Below, one piece after another: positions 11,487 to 55,478 of a stretch of DNA of 64,000 nt. Where the stretch lies: the NCBI RefSeq assembly GCF_003334405.1, contig NZ_QOWM01000012.1; one strand, written 5' to 3'. This stretch comes from Escherichia coli (lineage in GTDB: Bacteria > Pseudomonadota > Gammaproteobacteria > Enterobacterales > Enterobacteriaceae). How positions within the stretch are numbered: the stretch's first letter is position 1; every line of letters begins with the position of its first letter. The translations under genes were made by a program, and so were the position numbers. A model generated the notes under the pieces. The model was not told the DNA's origin. It worked only from the letters and a program-made list of their open reading frames with translations, and made no database searches.

Positions 11487-11585
11487 GCCTGATGCGCTGC
11501 GCTTATCAGGCCTACAAGGTTTCTGCAATATATTGAATTTGCAATATTTTGTAGGCCGGATAAGGCGTTCACGCCGCATCCGGCA
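11487..11585. repeat. REP pair (BIME) between lafA and lafB
   Basis: gcctgatgcgctgcgcttatcaggcctac and gtaggccggataaggcgttcacgccgcatccggca. Confidence 0.7.
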
Positions 11586-17289: not shown

Positions 17290-17505
<216 letters not shown>

Positions 17506-36626: not shown

Positions 36627-36710
<84 letters not shown>

Positions 36711-39913: not shown

Positions 39914-41042
39914 CAGCAGCGAAGAAAAAACAGAAAAACCCTCGGCGCAAAAGCTGCGTAAAGCGCGTGAAGAGGGGCAACTGCCGCGCTCGAAGGATAT
40001 GGGGCTGGCGGCGAGCCTGTTTGCGGCGTTTGTGGTGATCTCCAGCAGCTTCCCGTGGTATGCCGATTTTGTGCGCGAGAGTTTTATCAGCGTGCATCAG
40101 TACGCGCAGGAGATTAATAACCCGGAGGTGATCGGCCAGTTTCTGCGCCATCACCTGTTAATACTCGGCAAGTTTATTCTCACCTTGCTGCCGATGCCCG
40201 CTGCCGCGCTACTCTCTTCGCTGGTGCCCGGCGGCTGGCTGTTTCTGCCGAAAAAAATCCTCCCGGATTTCAGCAAAATCAGCCCGTTAAAAGGCATTGG
40301 GCGGCTGTTTTCCAGTGAACATCTGGCGGAAACGGGAAAGATGACGGTGAAGTCGGTGGTGGTGCTGGTGATGCTGTGGGTAAGCCTGCGCAATAACTTT
40401 GCCGCCTTTCTCGGCCTGCAGGCGCTACCGTTCAAACTGGCGATGAATGAGGGTTTATCGCTCTACGCCTGCGTGATGCGCAACTTTGTCATCCTGTTTA
40501 TCTTCTTTGCGTTAATCGACGTGCCGCTGGCGAAAGCCCTGTTTACCAAAGGGCTGAAGATGACCAAACAGGAGCTGAAAGAAGAGTATAAAAACCAGGA
40601 AGGCAAGCCGGAAGTGAAGGCGCGCGTGCGGCGTCTGCAACGGCAGTTGGCGATGGGGCAAATTCGCAAAGTGGTGCCGAAAGCCAACGTGGTGATCACC
40701 AACCCGACCCACTACGCCGTGGCGTTGCAGTATGACTCGTCGCGCGCCGCCGCGCCGTTTGTGGTGGCGAAAGGCACCGATGAAATCGCCCTCTATATTC
40801 GCCAGGTCGCCGCTGAGAATCAGGTGGAAGTGGTCGAGTTCCCGCGACTGGCGCGCTCGGTTTACTACACCACCCAGGTGAACCAGCAAATTCCGTTTCA
40901 GCTTTACCGGGCCATCGCCCACGTTCTGACCTACGTCCTGCAAATGAAACACTGGCGCGAGGGTGCACAGCCGCGCCCGGCCCTGAACAGACATATTTCC
41001 ATTCCCAAAGAGGTGCTTAAACTGGATGGCGAAAACAACTAA
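39903..41042 (+). CDS. lfhB: export switch protein LfhB (FlhB-like)
   Basis: 379 aa; NPTH autocleavage motif (VITNPTHYAVAL). Confidence 0.9.
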   Translation: MADSSSEEKTEKPSAQKLRKAREEGQLPRSKDMGLAASLFAAFVVISSSFPWYADFVRESFISVHQYAQEINNPEVIGQFLRHHLLILGKFILTLLPMPAAALLSSLVPGGWLFLPKKILPDFSKISPLKGIGRLFSSEHLAETGKMTVKSVVVLVMLWVSLRNNFAAFLGLQALPFKLAMNEGLSLYACVMRNFVILFIFFALIDVPLAKALFTKGLKMTKQELKEEYKNQEGKPEVKARVRRLQRQLAMGQIRKVVPKANVVITNPTHYAVALQYDSSRAAAPFVVAKGTDEIALYIRQVAAENQVEVVEFPRLARSVYYTTQVNQQIPFQLYRAIAHVLTYVLQMKHWREGAQPRPALNRHISIPKEVLKLDGENN

Positions 41043-43119
41043 ATCGTTCCTCGCGCTGCTGCGCGGCGGCAATCTCGGCGTGCCGCTGGTGATCCTGTGT
41101 ATTCTGGCGATGGTTATTTTGCCGCTGCCGCCTGCGCTGCTGGATATTCTGTTCACCTTCAACATTGTGCTGGCGGTGATGGTGCTGCTGGTGGCGGTGT
41201 CGGCGAAACGACCGCTGGAATTCAGCCTGTTCCCGACCATTTTGCTGATCACCACCTTAATGCGCCTGACGCTTAACGTTGCTTCTACGCGCGTGGTGCT
41301 GCTGCACGGGCATCTCGGCGCGGGCGCGGCGGGTAAGGTGATTGAGTCGTTTGGTCAGGTGGTGATCGGCGGCAACTTTGTCGTCGGCTTCGTGGTGTTT
41401 ATCATCCTGATGATCATCAACTTTATTGTCGTCACCAAAGGGGCCGAGCGTATTTCCGAGGTTTCTGCCCGCTTTACCTTAGACGCGATGCCCGGCAAAC
41501 AGATGGCGATTGACGCCGATCTTAACGCCGGATTGATCAACCAGGCGCAGGCGCAAACCCGGCGTAAAGATGTTGCCAGCGAGGCCGATTTCTACGGCGC
41601 GATGGACGGGGCATCGAAGTTTGTGCGCGGGGACGCCATCGCCGGGATGATGATTCTGGCGATCAACCTGATCGGCGGCGTCTGTATCGGGATCTTCAAA
41701 TACAACCTGAGCGCCGATGCTGCCTTCCAGCAGTATGTGCTGATGACCATCGGCGACGGCCTGGTGGCGCAGATCCCTTCCCTGCTGCTCTCCACCGCGG
41801 CGGCGATTATCGTCACCCGCGTCAGCGACAACGGCGATATCGCCCATGACGTGCGTAACCAGCTGCTGGCAAGCCCGTCGGTGCTCTACACCGCCACCGG
41901 GATTATGTTCGTGCTGGCGGTGGTACCGGGAATGCCGCACCTGCCGTTTTTGCTGTTCAGCGCCCTGCTTGGTTTTACCGGCTGGCGGATGAGCAAACAG
42001 CCGCTGGCGGCGGAGGCGGAAGAGAAAAGCCTCGAAACGCTGACCCGCACCATCACCGAAACCAGCGAGCAGCAGGTCAGTTGGGAAACCATTCCGCTGA
42101 TCGAGCCTATCAGTTTAAGCCTCGGTTACAAACTGGTGGCGCTGGTGGACAAAGCACAGGGTAACCCGCTCACCCAGCGGATTCGCGGCGTGCGGCAGGT
42201 GATTTCTGACGGCAACGGCGTGCTGCTGCCGGAGATCCGCATTCGGGAAAACTTCCGCCTTAAGCCCAGTCAGTACGCCATTTTCATCAACGGCATAAAG
42301 GCTGATGAAGCGGATATTCCGGCGGATAAACTGATGGCCCTGCCCTCCAGCGAAACCTACGGCGAGATTGACGGCGTGCAGGGGAACGACCCGGCGTACG
42401 GGATGCCGGTCACCTGGATCCAGGCGGCGCAGAAAGCGAAGGCGCTGAATATGGGGTATCAGGTGATCGACAGCGCCAGCGTGATCGCTACCCATGTAAA
42501 TAAGATTGTGCGCAGCTATATTCCTGATTTGTTTAACTATGATGATATTACGCAGTTGCATAACCGTTTATCGTCGACGGCACCGCGTCTGGCGGAAGAT
42601 TTGAGCGCGGCGCTCAATTACAGCCAGTTGCTGAAAGTGTACCGGGCGCTGCTGACCGAAGGCGTTTCCCTGCGCGATATCGTCACCATCGCCACCGTGC
42701 TGGTCGCCAGTAGCACGGTGACGAAAGATCATATTCTGCTGGCGGCCGATGTGCGCCTGGCATTGCGGCGCAGCATTACCCATCCGTTCGTTCGCAAGCA
42801 GGAGCTGACGGTGTATACGCTGAATAATGAGCTGGAAAATCTGCTGACCAACGTGGTGAATCAGGCGCAACAGGGCGGGAAAGTGATGCTCGACAGCGTG
42901 CCGGTCGATCCGAATATGCTCAACCAGTTCCAGAGTACGATGCCACAGGTGAAAGAGCAGATGAAAGCGGCGGGGAAAGACCCGGTGCTGCTGGTGCCAC
43001 CGCAGCTGCGCCCTTTGCTGGCGCGTTATGCAAGGTTGTTTGCGCCGGGGCTGCATGTGCTGTCGTATAACGAAGTGCCGGATGAGCTGGAGTTGAAGAT
43101 TATGGGGGCGTTGATGTAA
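41026..43119 (+). CDS. lfhA: export apparatus protein LfhA (FlhA-like)
   Basis: 697 aa; N-terminal 8-TM domain and cytoplasmic domain, FlhA family. Confidence 0.95.
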   Translation: MAKTTKSFLALLRGGNLGVPLVILCILAMVILPLPPALLDILFTFNIVLAVMVLLVAVSAKRPLEFSLFPTILLITTLMRLTLNVASTRVVLLHGHLGAGAAGKVIESFGQVVIGGNFVVGFVVFIILMIINFIVVTKGAERISEVSARFTLDAMPGKQMAIDADLNAGLINQAQAQTRRKDVASEADFYGAMDGASKFVRGDAIAGMMILAINLIGGVCIGIFKYNLSADAAFQQYVLMTIGDGLVAQIPSLLLSTAAAIIVTRVSDNGDIAHDVRNQLLASPSVLYTATGIMFVLAVVPGMPHLPFLLFSALLGFTGWRMSKQPLAAEAEEKSLETLTRTITETSEQQVSWETIPLIEPISLSLGYKLVALVDKAQGNPLTQRIRGVRQVISDGNGVLLPEIRIRENFRLKPSQYAIFINGIKADEADIPADKLMALPSSETYGEIDGVQGNDPAYGMPVTWIQAAQKAKALNMGYQVIDSASVIATHVNKIVRSYIPDLFNYDDITQLHNRLSSTAPRLAEDLSAALNYSQLLKVYRALLTEGVSLRDIVTIATVLVASSTVTKDHILLAADVRLALRRSITHPFVRKQELTVYTLNNELENLLTNVVNQAQQGGKVMLDSVPVDPNMLNQFQSTMPQVKEQMKAAGKDPVLLVPPQLRPLLARYARLFAPGLHVLSYNEVPDELELKIMGALM

Positions 43120-43134
43120 GTATCCAGCATTGGT

Positions 43135-43338
43135 GCACAACTGCCGGATGCGGCGTGAACGCCTTATCCGTCCTACCGTTCAGGCACAAGTTTGTAGGCA
43201 TGATAAGACGCGCCAGCGTCGCATCAGGCATCTGCGCATAACTGCCGGATGCGGCATAAACGCCTTATCCGGCCTACCGATCCGGCACAAGTTTGTAGGC
43301 ATGATAAGACGCGCTAGCGTCGCATCAGGCATCTGCGC
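43135..43338. repeat. BIME: two tandem ~100-bp REP-pair units
   Basis: Unit ctgccggatgcggcrtraacgccttatccgkcctacc...gtaggcatgataagacgcgcyagcgtcgcatcaggcatctgcgca repeated twice. Confidence 0.75.
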
Positions 43339-43342
43339 ACAA

Positions 43343-43840
43343 TTATGAAATGATACGCTCCCCGGCACTAAAATCCGTTACGTCCCCCGCCCAATCGATG
43401 GGATATAACCCTCGCGCGACATCGCGATGGAACGTTGAGAATGGCCAATCACTCACTTGCTTTACCCAACCATGCTTTACTGGATTTATATAAATATAAT
43501 CAACATGATGCCTATAATCTTTGGTATTGCGGATGGCGTGCTCCCAAAAACGTGGTTGCCAGATATTTTTCAATCCACAAGCATGGGTAAATTGCTTTTT
43601 AATTTCCCGCCAGCGCGAGGAAAAATCATCATCGCCTTCAGGTAATGTCCAGATACAGTGCATATGCTCTGGCAAAACGACCCAGGCGTTGATTTCAAAA
43701 GGCCTGTCTCGCTTAACTTTAATAATGGCGTGACGGAGCATCTGGTACTGGGTGGTCAAAAGTTGGCTTCGACGATTTCGTAAATTCACCGTGAAAAACC
43801 ATGTTCCCCCCTTGATGTAATAACGACGATATTCAGACAT
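43343..43840 (-). CDS. rayT: REP-associated tyrosine transposase RayT (TnpA-REP)
   Basis: 165 aa starting MSEYRRYYIKGGTWFFTV; HUH-family motif (LPEHMHCIW); flanked on both sides by BIMEs. Confidence 0.85.
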   Translation of the reverse strand: MSEYRRYYIKGGTWFFTVNLRNRRSQLLTTQYQMLRHAIIKVKRDRPFEINAWVVLPEHMHCIWTLPEGDDDFSSRWREIKKQFTHACGLKNIWQPRFWEHAIRNTKDYRHHVDYIYINPVKHGWVKQVSDWPFSTFHRDVARGLYPIDWAGDVTDFSAGERIIS

Positions 43841-43919
43841 GGCGACTCCTTTTTCTCAACGGTAAGAAGAAAAGGAAAGGTTGGCAATGAGGTTGTTTTA
43901 TATCGGGAAAGCGGCTCGC

Positions 43920-44025
43920 AAATATTCGCGGGCTCGTAGGCATGATAAGACGCGCCAGCGTCGCATCAGGCACCTGCGTACAACTGCCGGATGCGGCGTA
44001 AACGCCTTATCCGTCCTACAAAATC
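43920..44025. repeat. REP pair (BIME)
   Basis: gtaggcatgataagacgcgccagcgtcgcatcaggcacc ... ctgccggatgcggcgtaaacgccttatccgtcctac. Confidence 0.7.
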
Positions 44026-44765
44026 GTCTCTTCCGTCAAAATCCTGCGCGCGCCCAAAAAATGGTCCTGCCAGAAAGGTTCGGCTAATCGGCTTATCCGA
44101 ATGGTTTCGCCGGTACGTGGCGACTCGATAAATTGCCCATCGCCCAAATACACGCCCATATGATCGGCTATCTCGCGGCTGTGGATATGGAAAAACAGCA
44201 AATCTCCCCGGCGCAGGTCGTTGTTCGCCACAATCGTTGCCCGGCGATAGTGGTACATCTCATTGGCCGTGCGCGGGAGCTTAGCCTCAAGGATCTTGTT
44301 GTAGGCATAAAAAACCAACCCGCTACAGTCAAAGCCTTTATCAGGCCGCGTACCGCCCCAGACGTAAGGCTTGCCAAGCTGCTGCTCCAGGCGGTGAATC
44401 GCCACTTCGGTAATGTTATGCAGATGGTCGCTGCTTAAAAAGTGGTTGTTTTCCGCCAGCGCCTGCCAGCGTCTGTCACTCGCCTTGAGCGGAGCAGGAA
44501 ACCATTCTGGATGCTGTTTTATCTGCTCCCGGTTGTGCTGGCGTAGCGCCCTTTTGCTTTCGGCATTGCCTTCCACAATATAGCTGGCCTGCTTTTTCAG
44601 ATGAGTTTGGTACTGTTTTAATAAACGCGCACGGTTTTGCATCCGCTGGCGGGCGGCGTAGCTGAAAGAGATATGTGATGTGGTGGCGCTGGCAAATGAA
44701 GAAAACGGCAAACAAATCAACAGTAATCCCGACAATACAAAGGATGGAATCGACGGCAAGGACAT
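44016..44765 (-). CDS. yafL: NlpC/P60-family peptidoglycan endopeptidase lipoprotein YafL
   Basis: Start set at MSLPSIPSFVLSGLLLICLPFSSFA; C-terminal NlpC/P60 domain with Cys (...GFDCSGLVFYAY) and His. Confidence 0.8.
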   Translation of the reverse strand: MSLPSIPSFVLSGLLLICLPFSSFASATTSHISFSYAARQRMQNRARLLKQYQTHLKKQASYIVEGNAESKRALRQHNREQIKQHPEWFPAPLKASDRRWQALAENNHFLSSDHLHNITEVAIHRLEQQLGKPYVWGGTRPDKGFDCSGLVFYAYNKILEAKLPRTANEMYHYRRATIVANNDLRRGDLLFFHIHSREIADHMGVYLGDGQFIESPRTGETIRISRLAEPFWQDHFLGARRILTEETIL

Positions 44766-47150: not shown

Positions 47151-47214
47151 GGGTAACCTCCACAACAGCGGGAGCGCATGGCCCCCGGCGAAGATTGATT
47201 TAAGAATTTTCAGG

Positions 47215-47345
47215 TCGGATGCGGCGTGAACGCATTATTCGGCCTACGGTTCGCGTACAGATTTGTAGGCATGATAAGACGCGTCAGCGTCGCATCAGGC
47301 ATCAGCGCACAAATGCCGGATGCGGCGTAAACGTCTTATCCGGCC
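47215..47345. repeat. BIME (REP cluster)
   Basis: tcggatgcggcgtgaacgcattattcggcctac ... gtaggcatgataagacgcgtcagcgtcgcatcaggcatc ... gccggatgcggcgtaaacgtcttatccggcctac. Confidence 0.7.
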
Positions 47346-47355
47346 TACGCCAGAC

Positions 47356-52098: not shown

Positions 52099-53235
52099 CT
52101 ACGAAAGCCCGCTCCCCGCAAGGACTGACGCCAGGTAGTTTCTGTCCATGGCTGCTTTTCGCATCTTACGTCTTAACCCTGCCTTGAATACCTTCTCATT
52201 CGTCAAAATATTAATAGCAATGTGCCGTATCCCTGAAAATAATTCTGCTGCGTTTCCTCTTCTTATTTTGTAGTCGTCTTCATTCATTACCACGTCCAGA
52301 CGCCTGTGCAGCTTATTCTCCACGTGCCAGTGGTTTCGGATTGCTGTGGCGAACTTCTCTGCGGTTAAATCAGCAGAACTGATATAATATCTGACCGTCA
52401 TTTCTGGCTCTTTCTTTTGTTCTGCTATTATTGACCGAAAGGAGACTGCCACGCATAATTTCTTCAGCCCTTTCCATTCAAACGTGAAATCAATAAGTTC
52501 ATCAGGGACATCGCAAACAATATGAAGACGGATTTCTTCTCTGCCGTGACTCTTTTCACTCATTGCGTAACTGTCATGCGCTGGATTATTTAATTCTTTC
52601 AGCGGAAATTTTTCCTCAAAGGCTTTATTTAGCCGCCCCTGGTTTCCTTTTACCGCGAATAAATAATCACCTCCCTGTTTTTGTATCTTCTCTGCAATAT
52701 CTTTCTGGCAACCCATCGCATCAGTTGTGATGATTTTTCCTTTAATATCCAGCATGTTAAGAAGTTCTGGGATAGCTGTAATCTCATTAGATTTCTCATC
52801 CGTCCTGATCTGTCCGATGACCAGACTGTGCATTGTTGAGAACGCACTAATGACATGAATCGCTCCCTTGCGGCGACTCTTGTCATAAGAATGCCGGAGT
52901 GTTTTTCCATCAATTGCGATGACGTCTTTATCATCTGAAGTATGGCAATCTCGCATCCAGTTAATAAAGCACTCGTGAAATTTTGAAGGACTGATACAGG
53001 ATACAACTCTGGCGATGGTATCGTGAACAGGAATACCATTTTCAAAATCACCATATTGTTTTAAAAAATCGAGATGTGTTTCCCCAAAATCCTCTATATC
53101 TTCCCAGCCTTCTGCACCAGAAATAACGGCACAAATAGTCAACAGTAGAATATCCGATAATTTATGTTCCACTTTCCAGGCTTGTCTGTAATCGGGGATA
53201 ATAGAAATATGTTCCATCAATTTTTTAAGTTCCAT
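52099..53235 (-). mobile_element. ISAs1-family (H-repeat) transposase, full-length ORF
   Basis: 378-aa [21 protein letters not shown]...; H-repeat-associated protein family typical next to Rhs elements; corresponds positionally to K-12 pseudogene yafF. Confidence 0.8.
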
Positions 53236-53333: not shown

Positions 53334-53632
53334 GCGAATTATTTAGTACAAAAAATCAGCGTTACGTGATCTTTCCCTGCCCCTGCGCTCACTACCATGG
53401 CTCTTTACCACAGCAGCCGGGGTTGTTTGGGACCGACTTCCGACAGCAGATCCCGGTGGGCCTGCCACCATCTCTTCACAAGCTTATGCTTATTACATGC
53501 AAAACGTCCCGTTTTGCATCTTTGTGCCTACGGCACACCGGTGATCTTTCCCTGATGAGGGATATATTAACTATTGAACATTAGCGCGAATTATTTAGTG
53601 CAAAAAATCAGCATCACGTGATGCTTTTCCTG
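53334..53632. repeat. pair of ~45-bp direct repeats flanking a ~200-bp GC-rich segment
   Basis: gcgaattatttagtRcaaaaaatcagcRtYacgtgatSttttcctgc at 53334-53379 and 53586-53632; core gtgatctttccctg also at 53541-53554. Confidence 0.4.
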
Positions 53633-53665: not shown

Positions 53666-54058
53666 TCATTGATGCAATTCGTAGATTTGAAGAAGTTCAA
53701 CTGCCACATTTTTATTTTTACTATCGCAATTTTTATACCATACCCATGCTTCCGTATTTTTTACTTTTTTTAAATCATCCATAATAAAATCCCCACCAAA
53801 AACAGTAAAATACAATGTTTCCTCATTAAAAATAAAACTCACTGCCCCCCCCTCTTTTATTTTAATTTCCGCTTCATTTGTGTTCAAATCAACTTTTTTA
53901 ATTACTCCATGTAAGTTGGGTTTTGATAGTTTTTCTACGCCACCATCAGGAGCGGGTAATATACATCGTTTAAGAACTTTAGCATTTGCACATCCAATAA
54001 CCCAAATTAGAATGCACACTCCCATGTTAATCGCATTAACGTGTCTTAAAACGTTCAT
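53666..54058 (-). CDS. candidate immunity lipoprotein for the Rhs C-terminal toxin
   Basis: 130-aa AT-rich ORF immediately downstream of rhs tip; N-terminal signal sequence with lipobox-like VIGC; start codon uncertain. Confidence 0.45.
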
Positions 54059-55478
54059 ATCTAATTCTCTCTCCAGGATGCGAATACATCCAACTTGTCA
54101 CTTTCTTACACAACTCATCTACATCTTCATTCTGTGCACGGGTACATCCCATAGTTGGTTTCCAGCCTTGTCGAGGAGCATAAGGATCGCGCAACGATGA
54201 TCCCCCACCATGTAGCCATCTTGCTCTAGTATCTGTAGTATAGATCTTCGTTGTGCCATATGCTGCCGATATTCCTGATTCATTTGTCTCACAACCAACG
54301 ACTTCACCTGTATATGGATCACCAGCACCACGTTGAGAACGACGATCAATTCTATTGCTACTATCAAAAGTCATTGAATCACCTGTTTCAGGATCATAAT
54401 AAATAGTCACTCCTCCAGTCATATCAGTAAGAACAAGAGGAGTTTCAGCACCTGCCCGGTCTGGAGCGGGAGGCCCATATACACTTATAACTCGTTCTAA
54501 CCCCAGTGGATCAGTGTAACGTATTGGTACCAGTGGATACGTGTATAGATTTATTCCCCCCTTCAACCCTATCGGATCCTGGGTGATATACCGCCCCTGC
54601 AACGGATCGTAGTACCGGTGACGGTTGTAATACAGTCCCGACTCCTCATCATACTGCTGCCCCGGCAGACGGAGTGACTGTTGAAGGTGCTGCGCACTGG
54701 TTTCGCCCAGCAGGTTTCCCCATTCGTCATACTCCCCGCACCACGCCGTTTCCCCTTCCGGGCTGATAAGCGCCTGCGGCAGTCCCCGGTGGTCACAGTG
54801 GTAAAGATGAAGTTTCCTCTCCGGGATGTATTCCGCCTCCATCTGCGCGGCCATCTGTTCCGCCGTCAGCCCGCACTGCGCAAGCCATGCCTCACTCTCC
54901 GCACTCACCGCTCCCGCGCGCAGTTCCCGCTCCAGCCTCCCCAGCATCACCGCCAGCTCCGCCGGGAGCGTCACACCCGTGTCCTCCTGCAACACCTCCG
55001 CCAGGCTCCGGTGCCGCGCCTTCGCCTGTTCGCCATTCTCTGTTTCGATTCTGATGAGCGGCGTGAAGCTCCCCGGCTGGTATACCGTCTGGATACGCGT
55101 GGTGCCGGTCTGTACCGTCGTCAGCCTGTCACCGTCCCACCCGTACCATGTCACCTCCGGTTTACGCGACAGCGACATCCACCCCGTCAGGTCACGCTCC
55201 CGCCGCCATACCCGTTTTCCCGTCCGGCGGCCCAGCGGGTCATAGAGGTACCGGCTCTCCACCTGTGGTTCGCCGTGCTGTATCCGCGTGTAGAACACCA
55301 GGCGGTGCTGGCTGTCGTAGTGGTAGTGGTGGGTCCGCTCGTCGTGCATCCGTATCACCCCTTCCGGGATGCGGTCCGTCTTCTCCGCCAGCCTGCCGTA
55401 TTCATCGTGGCGGTAGACATAGTGCGCATCTTCCGCGATGCGGTTACCCGGCGTTTTCCCCGATGCTGGTTGAGTGGC
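54036..55478 (-). CDS. rhs: Rhs protein C-terminal fragment (core repeats + DPLGL boundary + L,D-transpeptidase-like toxin domain)
   Basis: YD/Rhs repeats ([20 protein letters not shown]), conserved ...[26 protein letters not shown]...DPLGL core end, then 153-aa tip with LHGG...[15 protein letters not shown]; frame opens only at 55478, so N-terminal ~1000 aa absent. Confidence 0.7.

Follow-up and report, generated by a model that had tools for sequence, protein, structure and literature searches.

At the point where the Flag-2 lateral-flagellar cluster gives way to core genes, the Escherichia coli DNA analyzed here (a stretch of 64,000 nucleotides, referred to below as the window) carries a transposase-like gene bracketed by REP sequences. 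The locus raises the question of whether this is the REPtron of the species, and of how the REPs beside the gene relate to those scattered through the neighboring cluster. On the evidence given below, it is almost certainly the E. coli REPtron, composed of a single-copy, vertically inherited rayT (tnpA_REP) and flanking BIME-2 elements. As such it is already known, a thoroughly characterized and ordinary locus. Two small points may be new: a private stem-foot variant in the REPs beside rayT and the richness of Flag-2 in REPs.

Identity of the gene and its genomic setting

A preliminary description made from the sequence had assigned an HUH tyrosine transposase to this position, and profile and structure matches bear the assignment out. 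The product of the open reading frame scored 179 bits against the NCBIfam model NF047646, "REP-associated tyrosine transposase" (cutoff 80, E = 4.6e-53), and was identical at 165/165 residues to PDB entry 4ER8 ("TnpArep"), the structure of TnpA_REP bound to a REP. The IS200-like Pfam model PF01797 (Y1_Tnp) matched below threshold (E = 0.082), and because this is too weak to name the gene by itself, the name rests on the NCBIfam and PDB matches. H59-M60-H61, Y115, N119, H123 and E161 were all found in the translation. Messing et al. 2012 (PMC3479197) described the roles of such residues as the HUH motif, the catalytic tyrosine Y115 and further metal ligands, with E161, on the C-terminal tail, as the glutamate that blocks the active site. 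A promoter and terminator scan of positions 43000-44200 performed no better than on shuffles and gave no convincing rayT promoter.

The gene map of the window was taken from a near-identical 24-kb stretch of strain AH21 (L002). The Flag-2 lateral-flagellar cluster is complete, spanning approximately 38 kb from lafU (~5186) to lfhA, and the gene order beyond it is rayT, yafL, dinJ-yafQ, dpaA, yafJ, lpcA and fadE. Since Flag-2 ends at lfhA and the core genes follow rayT, the locus sits at the Flag-2/core junction, as had been proposed. This adjacency is a matter of synteny and is not evidence of a mechanistic link. Coordinates of the genes, the flanking REPs and the REP loci within Flag-2 are collected in Table 1.

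Table 1. Features of the rayT locus and REP loci of the Flag-2 cluster (positions in the window)
Feature	Position	Strand	Basis or remark
lfhA (flhA paralogue), last Flag-2 gene	41026..43119	+	left neighbor, convergent with rayT
Tandem array of two BIME-2 units, 3' of rayT	43135..43342	.	Tandem Repeats Finder
Y-class REP, outermost on 3' side	43143..43176	-	0 mismatches to degenerate Y pattern; hairpin
Z2-class REP, 3' side	43194..43229	+	REP scan; hairpin
Y-class REP, 3' side	43244..43277	-	REP scan; hairpin z = -3.16
Z2-class REP, 3' side, 12 nt from rayT stop codon	43295..43330	+	REP scan; hairpin
rayT (tnpA_REP, formerly yafM), 165-aa HUH Y1 nuclease	43343..43840	-	ATG-start ORF, profile, PDB match
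Z2-class REP of single 5' BIME	43936..43971	+	REP scan; hairpin
Y-class REP of single 5' BIME	43986..44019	-	REP scan; hairpin
yafL (C40 peptidase)	44016..44765	-	right neighbor, upstream of and co-directional with rayT
Flag-2 REP locus	11487/11551		Z1/Y BIME-1, long linker
Flag-2 REP locus	13853		
Flag-2 REP locus	17344/17394/17462		plus partial copy
Flag-2 REP locus	19632		
Flag-2 REP locus	20618		
Flag-2 REP locus	22647/22699		
Flag-2 REP locus	29537/29582		
Flag-2 REP locus	36628/36676		

Arrangement of REPs and BIMEs around rayT

In order to locate REPs, the window was scanned with three E. coli consensus sequences (Y, 34 nt; Z1, 29 nt; Z2, 36 nt), with overlapping matches. The whole window gave 11 Y and 6 Z2 matches, against 0.00 expected from dinucleotide-preserving shuffles. 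All six REPs flanking rayT lie within 0-2 mismatches of their class consensus, and each folds into a hairpin directly after its GTAG, with an internal 2x2 mismatch and z-scores of -2.2 to -3.2. When the REPs are written from GTAG onward, the Y copies lie on the minus strand, like the rayT coding sequence, and the Z2 copies on the plus strand. With respect to the gene, this makes the former "REPs" and the latter "iREPs". On the 3' (lfhA) side the order is Y/Z2/Y/Z2 with linkers of 17, 14 and 17 nt, and the 5' (yafL) side holds a single Z2 and Y separated by 14 nt.

The 3' side forms a tandem array with a period of 101 bp, 2.1 copies and 92% matches, the sole array scoring at least 80 by Tandem Repeats Finder in the whole window. 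On the yafL side, a repeat finder recovered an 84-nt copy of the array unit at 43936-44019, 94% identical. The layout that had been described, two REP-pair units of roughly 100 bp on one side of the gene and one pair on the other, is thus what the array and the Z2/Y pair show. The heading of that description had gone further in placing tandem BIMEs on both sides; this stands for the lfhA side, but not for the yafL side, where the BIME is single, as its own text says.

The BIMEs sit right at the 3' ends of genes: yafL has its TAG stop codon within the GTAG of the 5' Y REP (44016-44019, minus strand), and the 3' BIMEs begin 12 nt past the rayT stop codon and 23 nt past that of lfhA. The flanking elements show the features of the BIME-2 class, namely alternating inverted Y and Z2 units, short linkers and, on the 3' side, tandem amplification. 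The class is one of the Bachellier/Gilson classification. In published accounts, BIME-2 elements consist of alternating inverted Y and Z2 palindromic units with short linkers and are often tandemly amplified (PMC3333891, PMC8266576).

Conservation of the locus in E. coli

Positions 43100-44050 of the window match numerous E. coli genomes at 100% identity (951/951 bp). K-12 MG1655 is among them, and the annotated features of its matching segment are flhA (partial), rayT and yafL. Ton-Hoang et al. 2012 (PMC3333891) placed tnpA_REP at a unique position between yafL and fhiA/lfhA in E. coli and Shigella, with a single BIME invariably 5' and a variable number 3'. The present layout is the same as theirs, which upholds the earlier view that the arrangement is canonical. 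The MG1655 REPtron shares with it the 165-aa protein, the neighbors yafL and lfhA/fhiA, and one 5' and two 3' Y/Z2 BIMEs. The difference lies outside the REPtron: MG1655 carries a 35.5-kb lafU-lfhA deletion, whereas here lfhA is intact and Flag-2 is complete (~38 kb).

We compared five diverged E. coli REPtrons, in which rayT is 92-97% identical. Four of them have the gene between yafL and lfhA; in L004 an ISEc31 transposase occupies the lfhA side. Exactly one Z2/Y pair was present on the yafL side in all five, and the lfhA side held 2, 3 or 4 REPs, with the ISEc31 insertion in one. An O157-like strain among them carries rayT with an internal stop codon and hence as a pseudogene.

Among complete E. 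coli genomes, rayT was present in 3575 of 5426, at a median of one place and a maximum of two. Its absence from about a third of them agrees with the losses reported for B2 and B1 by Ton-Hoang et al. 2012 (PMC3333891), through precise excision in B2 and replacement by hicAB in B1. Full-length, 100% identical matches were also found in a plasmid collection, where all seven (7/7) lie on plasmids of 214-242 kb recorded as laboratory or cell-culture isolates, two of them labeled K-12. Our reading is that these are F-prime episomes with this part of the chromosome on board, rather than cases of natural mobility, and a naturally plasmid-borne rayT was rejected accordingly.

Taken by its features, the locus has what is expected of a REPtron: a RAYT profile match; the HUH motif, the tyrosine and the inhibitory glutamate; bulged inverted REPs preceded by GTAG on both sides; and one copy per genome, in a constant chromosomal position. 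In class, the flanking REPs agree with the dispersed ones, although a private single-base variant is present in the flanking copies.

The E. coli REPtron can also be set against the group 3 REPIN-RAYT systems of Pseudomonas and Stenotrophomonas. These likewise pair a single-copy RAYT with flanking inverted REP doublets that also occur genome-wide, and mobilization in trans has been proposed for them. Group 3 differs in that its REPs are short and perfectly palindromic and that there are often several REPtrons per genome (PMC8266576). The E. coli REPtron was placed in group 2 by Corneloup et al. 2021 (PMC8266576); its palindromes are imperfect and bulged and fall into three classes (y, z1 and z2). 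The same authors describe tnpA_REP as a domesticated transposase behaving like a housekeeping gene.

REPs within Flag-2 and a stem-foot variant beside rayT

A comparison proposed beforehand concerned the classes of REP inside Flag-2 and beside rayT. The scan identified 14 REPs at eight intergenic loci in the Flag-2 interior (Table 1), all of class Y, Z1 or Z2. As these are the same classes as those flanking rayT, the outcome that had been named as counting against the proposal, Flag-2 REPs of an unrelated class, did not arise. Three further REPs were found between yafJ and lpcA (47214-47348).

Seven 50-kb pieces of strain AH21, 350 kb in total, served as a genome sample; they contained 55 REPs of classes Y, Z1 and Z2 at 24 loci, with 0 to 21 REPs in each piece. 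REP density is 0.37 per kb in Flag-2 (8 loci in 38 kb) and 0.157 per kb in this sample. Flag-2 is accordingly some 2-3 times richer in REPs than the 350-kb sample, a difference that, with only seven samples, is suggestive at best. The Flag-2 BIME array between lfgK and lfgJ, at 17292-17501, contains exactly one more 118-bp unit in the window than in AH21, and owing to this unit AH21 is out of register with the window before ~17.3 kb. The extra unit is consistent with the kind of local amplification that the RayT model predicts.

The REPs beside rayT depart from their consensus in a recurrent manner. All three flanking Z2 copies read GTAGGCATGAT in place of the consensus GTAGGCCTGAT; in the alternative writing they have TTATCATGCCTAC, which is GTAGGCATGAT when read GTAG-first, and the consensus has G at this position (C GTAG-first). 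Of the three flanking Y copies, the one on the 5' side and the outermost on the 3' side have GTAGGACGG in place of GTAGGCCGG and carry CCGTCCTAC. By folding, the Z2 and the Y variant, both C-to-A changes, each unpair one base at the foot of the stem. All five diverged REPtrons retain the Z2 variant, which recurs in the BIME at yafJ-lpcA, 3.3 kb away. In the seven AH21 pieces the stem-foot variants were seen in 0/19 Z2 and 0/30 Y copies, and the Z2 variant was likewise found in none of the Flag-2 Z2 copies.

With private variants in the flanking REPs and none in the sampled dispersed ones, the flanking copies are not obviously the genome-wide source. It may be asked whether the rayT-adjacent REPs are a private, conserved and locally propagated sub-variant rather than typical genomic REPs or master copies of the dispersed ones, an interpretation that we put forward with considerable doubt. 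If it held, the REPtron BIMEs could serve RayT for docking or autoregulation, or could be copies that a weakened stem has immobilized. RayT-driven spread might also be mainly short-range; in the neighboring Flag-2 the density of REP loci is about three times that of the sample.

Activity of RayT and its proposed role in vivo

The preliminary description had suggested an in vitro test of RayT cleavage on these REPs. Such a test is already published, with BIMEs of identical sequence: the binding, cleavage and strand-transfer substrates of Ton-Hoang et al. 2012 (PMC3333891) were the MG1655 REPtron BIME-2 (y REP and z2 iREP). In that work binding needed GTAG and the stem mismatch, and strand transfer was able to add BIME units. 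Messing et al. 2012 (PMC3479197), who determined the structure in complex with a REP, described the enzyme as a monomer that depends on Mn and is inhibited by its own C-terminal tail.

From the published work on the identical protein and REPs, the in vitro reaction can be described as follows. RayT recognizes a REP folded as a hairpin by two features, the bulge in the stem and the GTAG located 5' of the foot. Cleavage, in the presence of Mn2+, falls at C|T either within the linker or in the partner inverted REP and proceeds through a 5'-phosphotyrosine intermediate on Y115; the enzyme can also rejoin strands, such that BIME units can be excised, inserted or added. The C-terminal tail, with E161, lies in the active site and holds activity at a very low level, and the C-terminally truncated form delta-152 is hyperactive.

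In the cell, RayT would act in trans on REPs and BIMEs across the chromosome, and its substrate would presumably be transiently single-stranded DNA at replication forks, in R-loops or in extruded cruciforms. According to the published model, its action would maintain, diversify and locally amplify REPs, with diversification followed by tandem amplification, and the rayT gene itself would stay in place. The two tandem 3' BIMEs represent the locally amplified side, variable in copy number, and the single 5' BIME the invariant side. The demonstrated activity of E. coli RayT is that in vitro, and its action in vivo is inferred. Two published observations count against a strong role in vivo: Ton-Hoang et al. 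2012 (PMC3333891) reported minor differences only in REP number between strains with and without rayT, and a mobilome study saw no circular REP intermediates. A later survey did find REPINs to be more numerous in rayT-positive E. coli genomes.

Alternative explanations of the locus

The alternative that survives best takes the flanking BIMEs as ordinary functional REPs whose proximity to rayT is now incidental, with RayT as a domesticated relic in a non-mobilizing role. Candidate roles for such REPs include mRNA 3'-end stabilizers or attenuators among yafL, rayT and the convergent lfhA, gyrase or HU sites, and naRNA-like transcripts. The placement of the BIMEs exactly at the 3' ends of these three genes agrees with it, as do their matches to the Rfam model naRNA4 (RF02564), for which every Y/Z2 unit exceeds the gathering score of 59.5 bits on the transcribed strand; beside rayT, the scores are 77 bits at 43197-43274 and 73.3 bits at 43939-44016, both on the minus strand. 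REP325/naRNA4 is a Y/Z2 BIME-2 array that gives rise to an HU-binding nucleoid-associated RNA, and the rayT-side units match its model end to end. However, they differ from REP325 in location and copy number, and this model appears to recognize any BIME-2 unit, as five loci matched it in the window.

The autoinhibition of RayT (PMC3479197), the near-equal REP numbers with or without the gene (PMC3333891), the pseudogene of the O157-like strain and the absence of rayT from about a third of complete genomes favor this explanation as well. Against it, these particular REPs are specific targets of RayT binding and cleavage in vitro (PMC3333891, PMC3479197), the association of REPs with RAYTs recurs in many bacterial genera with co-evolving specificity according to the literature, and more REPINs are reported in rayT-positive E. 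coli genomes. On balance we consider an incidental association possible but rather unlikely. It is compatible with the identification of the locus as the REPtron, and the two are not exclusive.

It is very improbable that the REPtron and its BIMEs serve as a boundary recombination module for the gain or loss of Flag-2. In its favor, the REPtron directly adjoins lfhA and Flag-2 is unusually rich in REPs. However, the K-12 deletion of 35,464 bp ends in lafU (~5954) and in lfhA (~41407), approximately 1.7 kb from the REPtron; only short microhomology marks its junction, and both ends are free of REPs. The REP scan likewise identified no REP at the other Flag-2 border, between lafU and dinB, and the REPtron is present whether Flag-2 is intact or not. 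REP-mediated loss of Flag-2 was rejected because the K-12 deletion ends inside these two genes without a REP.

Lastly, the layout resembles that of IS200/IS605-family elements such as IS608 and ISDra2. Their TnpA shares with RayT the HUH motif, a single catalytic tyrosine and single-stranded DNA substrates, and they likewise have imperfect subterminal hairpins with a 5' tetranucleotide at the hairpin foot. RayT differs in being a monomer with an autoinhibitory C-terminal extension, a preference for Mn2+ and cleavage at C|T on either side of the hairpin, and in having a single-copy, immobile gene. That the locus is an autonomous element of this family, moving as a unit of hairpin ends and tnpA, is hardly credible despite the Y1 HUH gene set between such hairpins and the weak Y1_Tnp match, and it was rejected because rayT is single-copy at the fixed yafL-lfhA site, with the RAYT-specific model scoring where the IS200-like one stays below threshold, with generic genomic REPs in the place of private IS ends, and with the seven plasmid matches read as F-prime episomes.

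Implications

As the E. coli REPtron, the locus is a textbook one: the protein structure, the rules of DNA recognition and the chemistry in vitro were all established with this very sequence. The question of the field, whether, when and how RayT moves REPs in vivo, is no more testable through it than before. What value the finding adds lies in its context: the window is confirmed as E. coli, and the Flag-2 island that adjoins the REPtron is intact. That island has been colonized by the species' own Y, Z1 and Z2 REPs, which fits a long residence of Flag-2 in the lineage.

REPs flanking rayT carry their own stem-foot variants

The Z2 REPs beside the transposase gene rayT carry the stem-foot variant GTAGGCATGAT and the adjacent Y REPs carry GTAGGACGG. 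The Z2 variant is kept in five diverged REPtrons and occurs also in the yafJ-lpcA BIME, 3.3 kb from the REPtron. It was not found in the Z2 copies of the lateral-flagellar cluster Flag-2, and neither variant was present in the 350-kb sample of strain AH21 (0 of 19 Z2 and 0 of 30 Y copies). On sequence comparison, these variants appear private to the rayT-adjacent REPs, together with the yafJ-lpcA BIME in the case of Z2. The TAG stop codon of yafL coincides with the final three bases of the GTAG (44016-44019) that belongs to the 5' Y REP, and the yafL coding sequence therefore extends into the REP recognition motif.

Positions of REPs with stem-foot variants, Rfam matches and the ISAs1-family ORF
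Feature	Coordinates	Strand	Evidence
Z2 REP with variant	43194-43229
Z2 REP with variant	43295-43330
Z2 REP with variant	43936-43971
Z2 REP with variant (yafJ-lpcA BIME)	47265-47300
Y REP with variant	43143-43176
Y REP with variant	43986-44019
RF02564 match	43197-43274
RF02564 match	43939-44016
RF02564 match	47268-47345
RF02564 match	17347-17424
RF02564 match	36631-36707
RF02751 match	11508-11550	-	44.6 bits
ISAs1-family transposase ORF	52099-53235	-	NF033564, 407 bits
RF01999 match	53349-53469	-	81.8 bits

REPs within Flag-2 and the K-12 deletion

Flag-2 (5186-43119) harbors 14 REPs at eight intergenic loci, or 0.37 per kb, compared to 0.157 per kb in seven 50-kb samples of the related genome AH21. 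REPs are about 2.3 times and loci about three times denser in Flag-2, a comparison based on a small sample. The BIME array at 17292-17501, between lfgK (flgK) and the gene for a rod-binding protein, contains one 118-bp unit more than in AH21 and represents a BIME copy-number polymorphism inside Flag-2. The 35,464-bp Flag-2 deletion of K-12 ends at about 5954 in lafU and about 41407 in lfhA; short imperfect microhomology is present at these ends (TGACAATC versus TGATCATC), and no REP lies at either of them.

Rfam matches

Every Y/Z2 BIME-2 unit of the window matched RF02564 (naRNA4/CssrE) with 73-86 bits, above the gathering score of 59.5, and on the sequence matches this family seems to behave as a generic BIME-2 model. 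Separately, a match to RF02751 (ES036/CssrF sRNA) just downstream of lafA spans the Z1 REP end and the long linker of a Z1/Y BIME-1. A match to RF01999 (group-II-D1D4-2) was also observed immediately upstream of the ISAs1-family transposase ORF. An RHS core fragment (54036-55358) and T6SS genes lie beside this match, which seems to belong to the ISAs1/H-repeat element rather than to be a complete group II intron.

REPtron variants and plasmid carriage

Among the diverged REPtrons, that of an O157-like cattle strain (locus L005, 1201-1698; NZ_CP028600.1) has a rayT interrupted by an internal stop and annotated as a pseudogene. In strain EC31 (locus L004, 1-1042; NZ_CP056036.1), the lfhA end and some of the 3' BIME array have been replaced by an ISEc31 element. 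The whole REPtron is also carried at 100% identity on plasmids of 214-242 kb (NZ_CP014273.1, NZ_CP014271.1 and others), whose records are laboratory or cell-culture isolates, two of them labelled K-12. These plasmids are presumably F-prime episomes with this chromosomal segment, and their carriage of the REPtron accounts for the nine plasmid matches of rayT. Such carriage does not conflict with the published statement that RAYTs do not occur naturally on plasmids.
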